Shown piece after piece: positions 13,347 through 22,563 of a DNA stretch of 51,123 nt. Position 1 is the stretch's first letter; every line of letters begins with the position of its first letter. The stretch spans positions 1-51,123 of the IMG/VR virus record IMGVR_UViG_638341087_000015. One strand, written 5' to 3'. Below the pieces are notes generated by a model, which ran no database searches, was not told the origin of the DNA, and saw nothing but the letters and a program-made list of their open reading frames with translations. The stretch is from a virus. Its lineage: Duplodnaviria; Heunggongvirae; Uroviricota; Caudoviricetes. The position numbers and the translations under genes were made by a program.

Positions 13347-13443
13347 TTAAATTTAGCACTGTTAAAAATTTAATCCTTAACCGGAGGGATTTCTGCACCC
13401 TCAGAACATCAGGAGGCCGCCTGAAAGGGCGGTGGAGATAATA

Positions 13444-13965
13444 ATGGGAATAACTAAAGAACGATTGTTGGAAATAGCAAACCTTAGTGATTGGGCATTA
13501 AGTGATGAGAGAATTATTTCTCCTCATGCTTATGAGTCAGTTACAAGTATAGAAATAACCACAATGGCTAGAATGCTGCTTGGTTATTTCAAAATAGAAA
13601 ATAAAAAACAGATGGATAGTAATGTTGATATATGTGAGATTTTAGACGATTGGGGGGCTTGGGTTGTGGCTGGTAATAGTTCTATTGATTGGCAGGAAAT
13701 AGCTGATAAATATAAAAATGTTGTTCCTCATGGTAAAAAATCACGTCGTCAGTGCAGCAATGATGAAGGGCGAGTTATTGACATTAGTATCCTTAGGTTA
13801 GAAAGATATAAGCAACAAGAATATGAGTTAATTGTTGCTCATTTTGTGATTGGTTTATCTCTTCGTGCTATTGCAAAGCAACAAGGATGTTCAGATGGAA
13901 CAATTCGTAAAAGATTGCAAAAAGCCTTAGGTTTTTTGACTGGATATATAGCAATTACCAGTTAA
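13444..13965 (+). CDS. Putative Q-family (QuuD-like) antiterminator/regulator with C-terminal HTH
   Basis: Segments WGAW, SRRQCSNDEG and CSDGTIRKRLQKAL resemble the conserved core of DLP12-type Q proteins as I recall them; AT-rich; GGAG RBS before the ATG at 13444. Confidence 0.45.
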   Translation: MGITKERLLEIANLSDWALSDERIISPHAYESVTSIEITTMARMLLGYFKIENKKQMDSNVDICEILDDWGAWVVAGNSSIDWQEIADKYKNVVPHGKKSRRQCSNDEGRVIDISILRLERYKQQEYELIVAHFVIGLSLRAIAKQQGCSDGTIRKRLQKALGFLTGYIAITS

Positions 13966-14603
13966 GAGTCAGCGGGTTTTTTACCAGTGTAATGGTATAA
14001 GGATACTCCCATGTGTCTTACATGATATGGAAGCGCTGTTGCTGGATGCTTTGTGATACTCTTAAAGCGGAGGGGAGAGCCTTCCGCTTCAATTTCTGCG
14101 TCCGAAACGGTCGTAGAGAAAAATTCTTTCCATTCATTGAATTTTACTGCTGATTTGTCAGACTTTATATAAATTAGAATTCCTCCATGATCGTCACGTG
14201 ACGTACCCGTGCCGTAACGTTCGGTTAGCTGAATCCAGCCATTATGAATAGATTTGGGGCCTCTCCATAATTTTGCTTCACCGATCCATTCGAATTTTCC
14301 GAATTGATGTTTAACTAATAAATCAACGTGACCGCCATGTTGAGTATCATGTTCAACATCATAAAACCTACCTTTCAGGAAATTTTTGATCGACGCTGTT
14401 AGCTCGTCCTCTCCCCACTTAGCATCTTGATAGAAGTGTTTGTCATTTTCTAAATTCTGAATAGCGTCGTCTAAATCTTCATAGAGTTGCTTTACAAAAA
14501 TATTTTTGTCTGCAGCTAATTTTCTTTGAACCATTCCCCTAAATTCAGGATCCATTCTAATTAATGATTGAAGGTCTGCAGTACAGATGTTTACATCACT
14601 CAT
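13962..14603 (-). CDS. Hypothetical protein with PD-(D/E)xK-like nuclease motif (cassette gene 3)
   Basis: Motif HVDLLV...EWIGEAK (D then E-x-K); ATG at 14603 with GGAGAG RBS, overlapping the upstream gene stop by 8 nt; 3-prime end overlaps the convergent Q-family gene by 4 nt. Confidence 0.5.
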   Translation of the reverse strand: MSDVNICTADLQSLIRMDPEFRGMVQRKLAADKNIFVKQLYEDLDDAIQNLENDKHFYQDAKWGEDELTASIKNFLKGRFYDVEHDTQHGGHVDLLVKHQFGKFEWIGEAKLWRGPKSIHNGWIQLTERYGTGTSRDDHGGILIYIKSDKSAVKFNEWKEFFSTTVSDAEIEAEGSPLRFKSITKHPATALPYHVRHMGVSLYHYTGKKPADS

Positions 14604-15024
14604 GCAGACTCTCCAAAAGACTCGAAGGAGTAAAGTATGGATAAAGATACTGGCTAAAATTATCAACCAATTCGCCAGTTTCTGGATGGTAAAAACTTCC
14701 TGTGTCTAAAGCATAGGAAATAAGATCATCTTCAACTGGTATTGGTTCTTCCGTTAAATTATCAATGTATTGAAAATGCATATCCAATAGATGTGCTTTA
14801 TAGCTAGATAAATAATCAGTTGCTTTTATTAGCAGGATATAGTCATCTTTCGTATCAGTTAGATAGGTCAAACCATTGATAAGGGTTTTGTATGTAAAGT
14901 GATTGATATTTTTAGCATCTTTACTAACCAGAAAAAGAAAAAGATCACGACACACACTGCGAACAGGATCATTAAAATCCTGCTCTATTTGCGTGATAAT
15001 GTCGTGATATATACTCTTTTTCAT
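14596..15024 (-). CDS. Hypothetical acidic protein (cassette gene 2)
   Basis: 142-aa ORF; its ATG overlaps the stop of cassette gene 1 as ATGA (translational coupling). Confidence 0.55.
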   Translation of the reverse strand: MKKSIYHDIITQIEQDFNDPVRSVCRDLFLFLVSKDAKNINHFTYKTLINGLTYLTDTKDDYILLIKATDYLSSYKAHLLDMHFQYIDNLTEEPIPVEDDLISYALDTGSFYHPETGELVDNFSQYLYPYFTPSSLLESLHE

Positions 15025-16112
15025 TTATGGCCTGATGATCTCGCTCTTCTTTTCTCTTCACAGGACTTAACAGAATCCAATATTTTTTCAACAATAAATA
15101 TAATCGAATCAATGTTGTTACAGTTCTTCGCAATTGCTTCATGCAACCTAATTCTAGGATTATCAAGCATTGTCCTTTTCCCTGGTAATATTAACTCTAC
15201 TGATAAAATATGTGAAGAACTTTGTGGTAAATCCCAAATTTTTCCCAACTTAAACTTTGTCAATATTGGGCTTGCGGACTCTCCACTATGATGGTAAACA
15301 TCTTGACGCAAACACTTTTGACTTGGTTTGAGTTTTAAAGAACTTGTATTGCCATCTGAGGTGATAAAAGATACATGAGAAATTCTGCCATCTACTTTCT
15401 CGTAAAGATCTTGTATTGAACCAAATAATTCAAGAGGATTGTTTAAAATAACGCCAGCTTCTTTTTTTATAAAATTAGCCACAAGGTATTGTTGAGGCTG
15501 TGATTCACTTCTTGGAAGGATAGATAAATCAATCGTAAGAATTAATATTTTTTCTGCAGGCATTAGCATGATGGTATTAAAGCATTGCGTGACTTGGCGT
15601 GTTTTGCATTTTATTTCTCCACCATTAGCACGTAATTCCATACCCGCATCGCTAAGATGTGTTGGGTCAAGCTCTATCACTTCAGTGTAATACGCTTTGG
15701 ATAAAAAAACAGCAGTGTCAATTTGTTTATCACGAATGATATCTTGACGTAGTTCAGCAAAATGCAGCTCAGTATCAGCAACTAACAGCTCCTCTCTGGA
15801 TAAAGGAGTTGGGTATTTTTCTGAGAAGAGGCTATTGTCCTTTTTCTGATTTGTGAAAATTGTTTGTAATTTTGCTACGTCTTCATCGGTGATTCTATAA
15901 ATAGAAAGTAATCGATTCCCGCTAAAAATTAAACCTTTCCAGAAATCGTCGATTCTGTCTTTTAGGTCGGGATTATGCTGAACTACACTATTTACACGTT
16001 CAATAAAAAGGGGTAATCCTTGGGCCGTTACACCCAGTGATGAACCAAGAAGCTTACGGGTGTTGCGCCAGCCAAAGCGTGAATTGATGTTTTTTACTGT
16101 TTGCTCAAGCAT
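15021..16112 (-). CDS. Hypothetical protein, about 363 aa (cassette gene 1)
   Basis: Track ORF 15021..16118 begins at GTG; the ATG at 16112 has AAGGAAG 5 nt upstream; AT-rich; no motif recognised. Confidence 0.55.
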   Translation of the reverse strand: MLEQTVKNINSRFGWRNTRKLLGSSLGVTAQGLPLFIERVNSVVQHNPDLKDRIDDFWKGLIFSGNRLLSIYRITDEDVAKLQTIFTNQKKDNSLFSEKYPTPLSREELLVADTELHFAELRQDIIRDKQIDTAVFLSKAYYTEVIELDPTHLSDAGMELRANGGEIKCKTRQVTQCFNTIMLMPAEKILILTIDLSILPRSESQPQQYLVANFIKKEAGVILNNPLELFGSIQDLYEKVDGRISHVSFITSDGNTSSLKLKPSQKCLRQDVYHHSGESASPILTKFKLGKIWDLPQSSSHILSVELILPGKRTMLDNPRIRLHEAIAKNCNNIDSIIFIVEKILDSVKSCEEKRRARSSGHK

Positions 16113-16457
16113 TAACACTTCCTTAATTTTCCCTTAACAATTTAGGGTGCTAAACTTTTTTGCGCAGTTTACACAAAAAAATAGTGCGTACGCAAAAACT
16201 ATCTAACATGATGAGCTTTAACCGGGAAATTTGTATATGTTGTGAGCATAAAGTTGGCTGAGAAATTTAAAACGGGTAGAATGACTGCGGGTGCTTGAGG
16301 CTATCTGCCTCGGGCATGAACACCAAAGGCAGATAGAGAAAAGCCCCAGTTAACATTACGCGTCCTGCAAGACGCTTAACATTAATCTGAGGCCAATTTC
16401 ATGCTTTGCACATGTAGGTTAGCCTCTTACGTGCCGAAAGGCAAGGAGAAGCAGGCT

Positions 16458-16613
16458 ATGAAGCAGCAAAAGGCGATGTTAATCGCCCTGATCGTCATCT
16501 GTTTAACCGTCATAGTGACGGCACTGGTAACGAGGAAAGACCTCTGCGAGGTACGAATCCGAACCGGCCAGACGGAGGTCGCTGTCTTCACAGCTTACGA
16601 ACCTGAGGAGTAA
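16458..16613 (+). CDS. hok: Hok/Gef family type I toxin (51 aa)
   Basis: MKQQKAMLIALIVICLTVIVTALVTRKDLCEVRIRTGQTEVAVFTAYEPEE matches my recollection of HokD/RelF; AAGGAG RBS; GC-rich structured leader and trailer typical of hok mRNAs. Confidence 0.85.
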   Translation: MKQQKAMLIALIVICLTVIVTALVTRKDLCEVRIRTGQTEVAVFTAYEPEE

Positions 16614-17079
16614 GAGACCCGGCGGGGGAGAAATCCCTCGCCACCTCTGATGTGTCAGGCATCCTCAACGCACCCGCACTTAACCAGCTTTGGCGGGTAT
16701 ATTTTATCTGTGAATATTTTTATAAAAATAATGCCCACGCACAGCATAAAACAAAAAGTATTACAGATAAAAAAGGAACGTAATGTGCAGATTTGTTGTT
16801 TTCCATATTTACTCACCTTAATATGATTAACCCTGATAGGGTTGTTATCTCAGCGGTTTTCAAATGAGATATTATGGTGATCTGACAAATTTGCATAACA
16901 TTAAAATTTAATTTGTTTAACCGCTTTTAATAATAAGCGTTGTTTGTATCCCAGCAATCTGTTGTTTGGTTTTTATTCCATTAAGGAGGGGGCTTTACAC
17001 TGGAGCCAGTTTATTTATACTTCATACGTCAGCCTGAACAACTGGCATCTGCTGCGCTGCGCCATCGAGAGATTGAGAA

Positions 17080-17679: not shown

Positions 17680-17969
17680 TGGTGGATTTACGTAAAGCGG
17701 CGCGGGGGCAGATGTGCACCGTCAGAATTCCTGGCTACTGCAATCACGATCCGGAAACGTCTGTGCTGGCGCATTACCGACTGGCGGGAACGTGCGGAAC
17801 AGCGACAAAACCACACGATATGCAGGCGGCGATTGCCTGTAGCTCATGCCACGATCTAATCGACGGGCGGGTAAAAACCATCGATTACACCAAAGAAGAA
17901 TTACGCCTGATGCATGCAGAAGGTGTTCTTCGCACACAAGAAATCTGGAGAAAGGAGGGATATTTATGA
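17679..17969 (+). CDS. Nin-region protein YbcO-like (96 aa, Cys-rich)
   Basis: 96 aa with CxxxxC/CSSCH motifs; start overlaps the previous stop (TAATG); stop overlaps the Q start (ATGA). Confidence 0.5.
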   Translation: MVDLRKAARGQMCTVRIPGYCNHDPETSVLAHYRLAGTCGTATKPHDMQAAIACSSCHDLIDGRVKTIDYTKEELRLMHAEGVLRTQEIWRKEGYL

Positions 17970-18508
17970 TTTACCCAACGAATACAGGAAAAAGCGGAGA
18001 ACACCTTCGTCTCACCACGCTGGAAAGTGTCTGGATTCAGGGAAAACTACGTATGTGGGGGCGCTGGTCGTATATTGGCGGCGGTAAGACGGGGAATATG
18101 TTCAACCAGTTGTTGGCCTCTAAAAAGCTGACAAAAACGGCAATTAACGAGGCGCTCCGGAGGATGAAAAAAGCAGGTCTGAACAAGTCTGAACTTGAGG
18201 CTTTTTTGCGGGATATGATTAACGGTAAGCAAAAGAGCTGGCTGGCGCATTGTACTGATGCAGAGGCGTTATGTATTGATCGGGTCATAAGTCAGGTGCT
18301 GGCAGAGCATCCAGGATTGATTAGCGTCCTTCGGCAACGGTATGAGGGGCGGGGGATGACCAAACGCAAAATGGCTGAATTGCTAAATGATGCACACCCA
18401 GAGTGGTGTTTTAGCACATGCGAAAAGCGAATTGCTAATTGGTTGGCCGTTGCTGAGTATGCGCTATACATTCCCATGCGAGAATCATTCTCTCAAAAAA
18501 CGGCTTGA
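17966..18508 (+). CDS. Putative late-gene antiterminator Q (180 aa)
   Basis: ATG at 17966 preceded by AAGGAGGG; last gene before the tRNAs and lysis cassette, the canonical Q position. Confidence 0.5.
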   Translation: MIYPTNTGKSGEHLRLTTLESVWIQGKLRMWGRWSYIGGGKTGNMFNQLLASKKLTKTAINEALRRMKKAGLNKSELEAFLRDMINGKQKSWLAHCTDAEALCIDRVISQVLAEHPGLISVLRQRYEGRGMTKRKMAELLNDAHPEWCFSTCEKRIANWLAVAEYALYIPMRESFSQKTA

Positions 18509-18861: not shown

Positions 18862-18937
<76 letters not shown>

Positions 18938-18940
18938 TAT

Positions 18941-19015
<75 letters not shown>

Positions 19016-20507: not shown

Positions 20508-20968
20508 ACAGAGTAACCGCGATTATCTCCGCTCTGGTTATCTGCATCATCGTCTGCCTGTCATGGGCTGTTAATCATTACCGTGATAACGCCATTACCT
20601 ACAAAGCCCAGCGCGACAAAAATGCCAGAGAACTGAAGCTGGCGAACGCGGCAATTACTGACATGCAGATGCGTCAGCGTGATGTTGCTGCGCTCGATGC
20701 AAAATACACGAAGGAGTTAGCTGATGCGAAAGCTGAAAATGATGCTCTGCGTGATGATGTTGCCGCTGGTCGTCGTCGGTTGCACATCAAAGCAGTCTGT
20801 CAGTCAGTGCGTGAAGCCACCACCGCCTCCGGCGTGGATAATGCAGCCTCCCCCCGACTGGCAGACACCGCTGAACGGGATTATTTCACCCTCCGGGAAC
20901 GACTGGTAATGATGCAGGCCCAACTTGAAGGTGCTCAGCAATACATAACCGAACAGTGTTTAAAGTAA
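20504..20968 (+). CDS. Spanin inner-membrane subunit Rz
   Basis: N-terminal TM segment and coiled-coil; ATG at 20504 overlaps the endolysin stop (ATGA). Confidence 0.75.
20724..20909 (+). CDS. Spanin outer-membrane lipoprotein Rz1 (embedded in Rz, +1 frame)
   Basis: Lipobox LVVVGC, proline-rich PPPPP segment, AAGGAG RBS at 20711..20716; entirely inside Rz. Confidence 0.75.
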
Positions 20969-21105
20969 AATCTTAACTACAATATGATTCATTTTGATGA
21001 TTGTTTCATAAGGAACAGTGAAGTAAGATCTAAGAGGAGTTAAATTTTATACAGTATAATCATAATATTGCAGCAAGGTGGTTATAATTGAAAGAATATT
21101 TAGAT

Positions 21106-22563
21106 ATGAATACATCTCATGTAAGAGTTGTTACTCATATGTGTGGGTTCCTGGTTTGGCTCTATAGTCTTTCAATGTTGCCACCAATGGTTGTAGCATT
21201 GTTTTATAAAGAAAAAAGCCTGTTCGTTTTCTTTATAACTTTCGTTATATTTTTTTGCATTGGTGGCGGAGCGTGGTATACAACTAAGAAATCTGGCATT
21301 CAATTACGTACCCGTGATGGGTTTATTATAATTGTAATGTTTTGGATTTTGTTTTCTGTTATTAGTGCATTCCCTTTATGGATTGACTCAGAACTTAATT
21401 TAACGTTCATTGATGCTCTGTTTGAAGGGGTTTCTGGAATAACAACAACAGGAGCAACTGTAATTGATGATGTTAGTTCATTACCTCGGGCATATTTGTA
21501 CTATCGGTCACAGTTAAATTTTATAGGTGGTTTAGGAGTTATTGTTCTGGCGGTTGCTGTATTGCCATTATTGGGTATTGGTGGTGCAAAGCTTTATCAG
21601 TCAGAAATGCCGGGGCCATTTAAGGATGACAAACTCACTCCCCGCCTGGCCGATACGTCACGGACACTGTGGATAACTTATTCTTTATTAGGTATTGCTT
21701 GTATTGTCTGTTATAGACTTGCAGGAATGCCTTTGTTTGATGCTATTTGTCACGGGATTTCCACAGTTTCGCTTGGTGGTTTCTCAACTCATAGCGAGAG
21801 TATCGGATATTTTAATAACTATTTGGTTGAGCTGGTTGCTGGTTCTTTTTCCCTGCTATCGGCTTTCAACTTCACTCTTTGGTATATTGTTATTAGCAGG
21901 AAAACGATAAAACCTTTAATCAGAGATATTGAACTTCGTTTCTTTCTGTTAATAGCCTTAGGGGTGATCATTGTTACCTCTTTCCAGGTCTGGCATATAG
22001 GTATGTATGACTTGCATGGAAGTTTTATTCATTCGTTTTTTCTTGCCAGCTCCATGCTCACTGATAATGGTTTAGCTACGCAGGATTATGCAAACTGGCC
22101 CACGCACACGATAGTGTTTTTGCTGTTGTCAAGTTTCTTTGGGGGATGTATAGGTTCAACTTGTGGTGGAATTAAGTCACTTCGATTTCTTATACTTTTC
22201 AAACAAAGCAAACACGAGATAAATCAGCTTTCTCATCCCAGAGCGTTGTTGAGTGTAAATGTAGGAGGGAAGATAGTTACAGATCGTGTAATGAGGTCTG
22301 TATGGAGTTTCTTTTTTCTTTATACTCTCTTCACGGTGTTTTTTATACTGGTGTTAAATGGTATGGGATATGATTTTCTTACATCATTTGCAACAGTGGC
22401 TGCATGTATTAATAATATGGGATTAGGTTTTGGGGCTACTGCATCGTCATTCGGAGTGCTTAATGACATTGCAAAATATTTAATGTGCATAGCTATGATT
22501 CTTGGTCGCCTTGAAATTTATCCTGTTATTATATTGTTTTCAGGTTTTTTTTGGCGCTCCTAA
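21106..22563 (+). CDS. trkG: Trk-family potassium uptake membrane protein TrkG-like (485 aa)
   Basis: Polytopic membrane protein with repeated pore-loop glycine motifs (TTTGATV, GLGV, LGGFS, CGGIKS); AT-rich; Rac is known to carry trkG. Confidence 0.8.
   Translation: MNTSHVRVVTHMCGFLVWLYSLSMLPPMVVALFYKEKSLFVFFITFVIFFCIGGGAWYTTKKSGIQLRTRDGFIIIVMFWILFSVISAFPLWIDSELNLTFIDALFEGVSGITTTGATVIDDVSSLPRAYLYYRSQLNFIGGLGVIVLAVAVLPLLGIGGAKLYQSEMPGPFKDDKLTPRLADTSRTLWITYSLLGIACIVCYRLAGMPLFDAICHGISTVSLGGFSTHSESIGYFNNYLVELVAGSFSLLSAFNFTLWYIVISRKTIKPLIRDIELRFFLLIALGVIIVTSFQVWHIGMYDLHGSFIHSFFLASSMLTDNGLATQDYANWPTHTIVFLLLSSFFGGCIGSTCGGIKSLRFLILFKQSKHEINQLSHPRALLSVNVGGKIVTDRVMRSVWSFFFLYTLFTVFFILVLNGMGYDFLTSFATVAACINNMGLGFGATASSFGVLNDIAKYLMCIAMILGRLEIYPVIILFSGFFWRS

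Follow-up and report, generated by a model that had tools for sequence, protein, structure and literature searches.

The window, by which we mean the whole 51,123-nucleotide stretch analysed here (IMG/VR record IMGVR_UViG_638341087_000015, Caudoviricetes), carries three overlapping minus-strand genes, here named A, B and C (Table 1), which probably form a self-contained and horizontally mobile defence operon directed against phages or other mobile DNA. The operon is carried as a moron by a Rac-type prophage, recognized as such by homology of its recE, racC, kilR, sieB, racR, ydaSTUV and trkG genes. Genomic context and protein folds are what point to defence. The details of the mechanism, in which A would sense, B would couple or restrain and C would cut, are held with less confidence than the defence function itself. 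The original prediction, made from the letters of the sequence, had singled out this operon as a defence candidate, and the computational tests that it called for (nuclease fold, absence of housekeeping families and variability of the genomic slot) all came out in its favour.

The sequence of the operon shows tight coupling between the three genes. Gene A starts with ATG and has AAGGAAG 6 nt upstream, the stop of A and the start of B overlap in ATGA, and B and C share 8 nt (ATGAGTGA) preceded by GGAGAG. At the other end, the stop codons of C and of the convergent plus-strand gene D overlap by 4 nt. The coordinates of the three coupled open reading frames, both overlaps and the GGAGAG, as well as the convergence of the operon end with a Q-family gene (D belongs to PF06530), had been given in the original prediction and were reproduced from the sequence. 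Since A, B and C each have full-length homologues of 30-75% identity in many taxa, we regard them as real genes. The predicted AT-rich island was also recovered in a window comparison of guanine plus cytosine (GC) content: 13400-16130 has a GC of 0.365, compared with 0.469 in the window and about 0.50 in the left flank, which places the island within the lowest 2% of windows of the same size. Such a composition fits a foreign origin. In E2348/69 gene C is annotated by RefSeq as a protein of 197 amino acids (aa; WP_001380433.1; locus L001 6595-7188). Starting at an upstream ATG, C regains the N-terminus and the 8-nt overlap with B that are conserved among homologues, and because the homologues align from this upstream ATG we preferred the 213-aa protein; judged from the alignment, the RefSeq start appears to be 16 codons too short. 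The region 5' of gene A contains a perfect 8-bp inverted repeat, TTTTTGCG ... CGCAAAAA (16157-16164 and 16191-16198, with a 26-nt spacer), a possible operator. A putative operon promoter, TTGCGT-18-TAAACT, was read by eye; it was not detected in a promoter scan of the operon 5' region.

A functional indication came from protein C, which had been described as restriction-endonuclease-like. Structure comparison revealed the alpha-beta-beta-beta-alpha-beta core fold of PD-(D/E)xK enzymes, with the catalytic D...(D/E)-x-K placed on core strands 2 and 3 and an acidic residue in the first helix. In an alignment of 27 homologues (27-78% identity) residues E65, D66, H85, G91, H92, D94, Q125 and Y130 and the segment W106-I-G-E109-A-K111 were invariant, so that the motifs HVDLLV and EWIGEAK noticed earlier hold the invariant D94 and E109-x-K111. 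E65, D94, E109 and K111 were also present in the C copies of Calothrix and Moritella. At the level of predicted fold and conserved motif, C is confirmed as a PD-(D/E)xK nuclease, its activity being predicted. The nearest structural neighbours were enzymes of the BamHI/BglII/BstYI group, followed by McrC, CdiA-CT, HamA, Can2 and NucC. C differs from the type IIP enzymes of the former group in several respects: identity to them is 8-14%, there is no methyltransferase in or beside the operon, C carries an additional helical domain of about 60 residues at its N-terminus, and A and B are its obligate partners. Among PADLOC families only a weak local match, to the candidate PDC-S54 (E 0.0016), was found, and it covers the nuclease core.

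Protein A gave no motif by eye, and its RdgC/RexA-type fold had been missed in the original prediction. The predicted model (predicted local distance difference test score, pLDDT, 83; predicted template modelling score, pTM, 0.81) has the RdgC fold with its base and centre domains. The structural matches of A are the set (RdgC/RexA/IML3-CHL4) described as relatives of lambda RexA in a study that reported the RdgC fold for this Rex sensor (PMC11077077); the top viral match by structure carries an exonuclease annotation. A profile search of 1.84 billion proteins (E <= 1e-3) showed that the A family comprises at least 499 clusters at 50% identity, nearly all of 340-390 aa. A and 82 diverse relatives had no Pfam match, RdgC (PF04381) included, the 82 relatives had no PADLOC match, and the family profile had no match among PDB sequences. 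Comparison by hhalign of the A family with lambda RexA and with DUF6731 gave probabilities below 1% in both cases, and no relation to the NA37-like protein was detected; we therefore do not call A a homologue of RexA or NA37, and the analogy to Rex is one of fold and context only. Compared with Escherichia coli RdgC (PF04381), to which its identity is 9%, A is longer and possesses a helical region at its N-terminus and a CLRxDxYHHxGE loop that is conserved, and it is encoded in a mobile operon together with a nuclease, whereas RdgC, a ring-shaped recombination-associated DNA-binding protein, is the product of a chromosomal housekeeping gene. The most conserved segment of A, CLRxDxYHHxGExA (267-280), is the sole part modelled with low confidence, as would be seen if this segment became ordered only upon binding of a partner. 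In four copies (loci L034, L041, L077 and L090) B and C are intact but A is split or carries a frameshift, which may reflect occasional loss of sensor activity.

To follow the three genes across taxa we used hidden Markov models of A, B and C on all fetched loci, which included 57 IMG/VR viral contigs and C proteins down to 29% identity. The order A-B-C on one strand was found in every locus with enough upstream DNA and was kept in Salmonella, Yersinia, Shewanella, Photobacterium, Acinetobacter, Proteus, Moritella and Calothrix. Most junctions are tight, and B and C overlap by 4 or 8 nt in most called loci. The surroundings vary. In lambdoid prophages of Salmonella and E. coli the late Q gene and the holin flank the trio; in Yersinia it is accompanied by a tail-tip gene and a giant LPD/MuF-domain protein; in Shewanella it adjoins a resolvase and a DUF6538 protein, and in Photobacterium VspR and helicases. 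A phage-like metagenome contig has it between Mor and pRha/HipA genes, and another locus places it beside TniQ and AAA_22 genes, which suggests Tn7-like cargo. Further copies are found in Proteus and Acinetobacter loci and on plasmids, namely Moritella pMR24b and a plasmid of the cyanobacterium Calothrix; BrnTA genes are also among the neighbours. A commoner variant, with C about 60% identical and more than 1000 assembly blocks indexed, occurs in E. coli (L092-L095) and Salmonella (L003-L006). It occupies the position between late Q and holin, a classical moron site, with bor adjacent in E. coli. A profile search of genome contigs with a narrower C alignment returned 2 loci, and among sequenced phage isolates the trio is nearly absent.

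This distribution bears on what the operon could do other than defend. Modulation of RecA and of replication restart is known for RdgC, and a bias on the lambda switch for RexA (PMC11077077). One alternative is that the trio is an accessory of phage DNA metabolism, in which a nuclease and an RdgC-like modulator of RecA or recombination aid recombination, replication or induction of the prophage or, as RexA does, bias the choice between lysis and lysogeny. Both the exonuclease annotation of the best viral structural match and the position of the cassette next to replication and nin-region genes agree with such a role. We nevertheless consider it improbable, since the cassette is AT-rich, runs antisense to the phage operons, is found in 14 of 5426 complete E. 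coli genomes and is missing from sister Rac prophages. Plasmids, chromosomal islands free of phage and sites next to transposon genes also harbour the same trio, and phage isolates almost never have it. Its rarity in E. coli and among phage isolates likewise led us to reject a housekeeping role.

Wadjet and Lamassu, which sense the topology or the ends of DNA, act on plasmids. By analogy, a ring- or horseshoe-shaped A could load on incoming or small circular DNA and direct cutting by C, which would make the trio a system against plasmids or transformation and not against phages; RdgC-type rings encircle DNA (PMC11077077) and the effector is a nuclease. We give little credence to this explanation, as plasmids themselves carry the trio and its strongest association is with prophages and with a slot that holds anti-phage systems.

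Protein B is the smallest of the three. Its isoelectric point is 4.5-5.4 across the seven lineages computed, the protein of the window has no transmembrane (TM) segment, and the family shows the conserved motifs YL(S/T), HPxTG and PYFxPS; no match to B was found in Pfam or PDB. B sits between A and C in every locus with enough DNA. In one variant locus an unrelated N-terminal domain of 300 aa is fused to the B domain (residues 302-420, E 1e-24) and followed by C, with no A present. Since in this variant the fused B domain is followed by C, the arrangement argues for B as the partner that communicates with C and for an exchangeable sensor. An acidic protein translationally coupled to a nuclease by a 4-8 nt overlap in most lineages also recalls a toxin-antitoxin or addiction module, here a tripartite one with C as a DNA-cutting toxin, B as its antitoxin and A as a DNA-binding regulator or stabilizer, which would stabilize its carrier and defend it secondarily. 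The trio does occur on small plasmids and islands, hok/sok, HipA and BrnTA are among its neighbours, and A is sometimes frameshifted with B and C intact. An order A-B-C with a first gene of 360 codons is, however, unlike classical toxin-antitoxin pairs, all three genes have been kept over very long evolutionary distances, and Pfam, NCBIfam and PADLOC gave no match to a known toxin-antitoxin family, so that we judge this explanation unlikely. The two functions overlap, as many toxin-antitoxin systems are defence systems.

The position of the trio in the Rac-type prophage favours the defence operon. Comparison with sister prophages delimited variable cargo from about 13905 to 16275: homology to the sisters is lost by about 13904, if not before, and is regained at about 16276, the beginning of hok/sok. 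The slot thus defined lies between a DUF977 gene and hok, and its contents differ among strains, a variability that the original prediction had proposed to test in Rac-like prophages. In EcPF14 the slot holds the anti-phage system IetAS, annotated as iteA/iteS, and in strain 190 it holds QueH. Other cargos consist of D with DUF6731 and a 159-aa protein that has 3-4 TM segments and a weak RexB match; of D with an NA37-like protein and a 477-aa protein with C-terminal TM helices; and of D with proteins of 309 and 182 aa, the latter with TM segments. In MEI003, proteins of 310 and 184 aa (the latter hydrophobic) are found without D. In the supplement of PMC13092281, DUF6731 matches the DefenseFinder RexA with an HHpred probability of 99.8%, and the NA37-like slot gene is given as a putative novel defence gene by DefensePredictor. 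Since the slot holds IetAS, the RexA-matching DUF6731 and the NA37-like putative defence gene, it is a defence hotspot; a soluble protein of DNA-binding type combined with an effector is seen in several of its cargos. The trio therefore shares a variable hotspot with known defence systems and is itself found on mobile elements. The block 13368-16698, which includes D, the trio and hok, is 99% identical to E2348/69 while its flanks are 86-88% identical or unrelated, and this difference in divergence indicates that the block was recently exchanged as a unit.

The two-gene cargos of this slot were recorded in their own right. Four were located (L002 6648-8057, L021 5094-7557, L022 5080-6544 and L086 7359-8842), and each consists of a soluble protein of 300-350 aa (the RexA-like DUF6731, the NA37-like protein or another one) and a membrane protein. 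PADLOC detected nothing in these four cargos beyond the weak RexB match. As a group they resemble Rex-like exclusion systems.

The convergent gene D had been described as a Q-family regulator. The family assignment was borne out by a match to PF06530 (Phage_antitermQ) of 109.4 bits (cut-off 26, E 1.3e-31); D has a 60-aa N-terminal extension and sigma-70 region-4-like features. Regulation of the cassette by D found no support: D lies in a flank shared with other cargos and is absent from copies of the trio outside phages. D shares 69% identity with the Q-family gene beside the DUF6731 cargo and 33% with the late Q placed tail-to-tail to the trio in Salmonella, and full-length D was found in 68 of the 5426 genomes. 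The prophage has two unrelated Q-type genes, D in the early region and another at about 17900-18508, annotated as DUF1133 in homologous loci, in the usual position of the late regulator. In prophage loci the distance between the 3' ends of the trio and of a PF06530 gene stays between -24 and +31 nt, very divergent trios included, whereas plasmid, island and transposon-adjacent copies have no PF06530 neighbour. D was therefore rejected as a component of the module, being common to other cargos and missing from the slot in MEI003 and from the non-phage copies. The recurrent adjacency to Q can be read in either of two ways: the position downstream of Q may simply be the one that morons favour, or the trio may be silenced during the lytic cycle by transcription from the convergent side. 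If the trio serves in defence, its recurrent link to phage Q genes may reflect the way in which prophages avoid self-targeting.

Searches of Pfam, NCBIfam and PDB sequences with A, B and C, both as single sequences and as alignments, gave no usable match, and in PHROGs each of the three falls into a family of unknown function. This agrees with the earlier remark that A and B have no assignable motif, and no housekeeping or curated family was matched. Trio accessions were not among the matches listed in the DefensePredictor supplements, as far as these were available to us. Several points weigh against the defence operon. In PADLOC-DB v2.0.0 (2023) A and B had no matches and C had only that to PDC-S54. 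No description of the trio was found in the literature, although a recent one may exist (the PADLOC library dates from 2023). The location is only suggestive: QueH is another occupant of the slot, and genes without a role in defence, for example bor and stx, are found at lambdoid moron sites. The role of B is deduced from its position and from one fusion, and defence is a function read from context and folds for proteins that are known here from sequence and predicted structures.

If the operon is a defence system, its own promoter would drive leftward transcription in the lysogen, antisense with respect to the early genes of the phage. A, with its RdgC/RexA/IML3-CHL4 fold, would act as a DNA-binding sensor of invader DNA or of a DNA structure made by the invader; free ends, replication or recombination intermediates and a protein-DNA complex are candidate triggers. 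B, co-translated with C, would link sensor and effector and may keep C in an inactive state. Once released or activated, C would cut DNA as a BamHI/BglII-like PD-(D/E)xK endonuclease, and either the invader would be destroyed or the cell would be killed (abortive infection). We infer the roles of sensor, adaptor and effector, as well as trigger and outcome.

Among the closest known systems is lambda RexAB. Like the trio, it is a prophage-borne system with presumed expression in the lysogen, its first gene belongs to the RdgC/RexA/IML3-CHL4 fold group, and a RexAB-like pair (DUF6731 and a 4-TM protein) occupies the same Rac slot in other strains. The trio differs in that A has no sequence or profile similarity to RexA or DUF6731 and that a membrane partner of RexB type is lacking, B and C having no hydrophobic segment. 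Whereas the output of RexAB is an ion channel, that predicted for the trio is a soluble PD-(D/E)xK nuclease with an extra adaptor gene. A similar logic, in which a PD-(D/E)xK-type or related nuclease is accompanied by a sensor and kept inactive until triggered, is shared by PARIS AriAB, Hachiman HamAB, Lamassu, McrBC and CBASS/NucC, and HamA, McrC and NucC are among the structural neighbours of C. The trio, however, has no ATPase, helicase, SMC or cyclase component and no PADLOC match to these systems, and an RdgC-like sensor fold and a small acidic B are not parts of any of them.

A broader proposal can be put forward only tentatively, as we think it rather less likely to hold than not. The trio could be the founding example of a widespread Rex-like class of immunity, ranging from Enterobacterales to cyanobacteria, in which a DNA clamp of RdgC/RexA fold switches on, via the adaptor B, a soluble restriction-like nuclease where Rex would use a membrane pore. 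The trio, DUF6731 with its RexB-like partner, the NA37-like protein with a 2-TM protein and the other occupants of the Rac slot would then be combinations of a nucleoid- or DNA-binding sensor with an exchangeable effector, and convergence with Q would silence the system in the lytic cycle of its own prophage. How RexA-type proteins sense infection is a question open since the 1950s, partly because the membrane-channel output is hard to assay. If the trio is a defence system, the pairing of a protein of the RexA fold class with a soluble nuclease would offer a biochemically tractable read-out of such DNA sensing. A sizeable family with no curated model, along with two partner families, would enter the defence catalogue, and the DUF977-hok site of Rac-like prophages would become a defence hotspot that can be mined.

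Table 1. Positions in the window of the A-B-C operon and of the elements next to it
Feature	Position	Strand	Description
Gene A	15021..16112	-	363 aa; first gene of the operon; predicted DNA-binding sensor with RdgC-like fold
Gene B	14596..15024	-	142 aa; small and acidic; proposed to act between A and C as adaptor or regulator
Gene C	13962..14603	-	213 aa; PD-(D/E)xK nuclease (restriction-endonuclease fold); predicted effector
Gene D	13444..13965	+	173 aa; PF06530 Q-family; convergent neighbour; part of the slot, not of the trio
Operon 5' region	16113..16275	-	Inside the variable cargo; presumed own promoter and inverted repeat
hok/sok locus	16289..16613	+	Type I toxin-antitoxin locus; conserved right border of the slot

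The hok/sok locus at the right border was identified by a match of sok to Rfam RF01794 (115.8 bits, 16289-16463) and by the hokD open reading frame at 16458-16613; hokD is annotated in homologous loci, and the locus lies inside the block that is 99% identical to E2348/69.

Two further regions of low GC were observed elsewhere in the prophage. A second AT-rich island, at 46500-49500 of the window (GC 0.34-0.39), follows directly after the tail-fibre genes and contains the type III secretion effector gene nleC, an nleG-family gene and a HECT-type E3 ligase. The type III effector genes there mark the host as an attaching-effacing E. coli, and the prophage has an exchangeable effector locus. A third patch of low GC (0.37-0.40), at 20750-22000, is found downstream of the genes for tRNA-Thr and tRNA-Gly (18862-19015).

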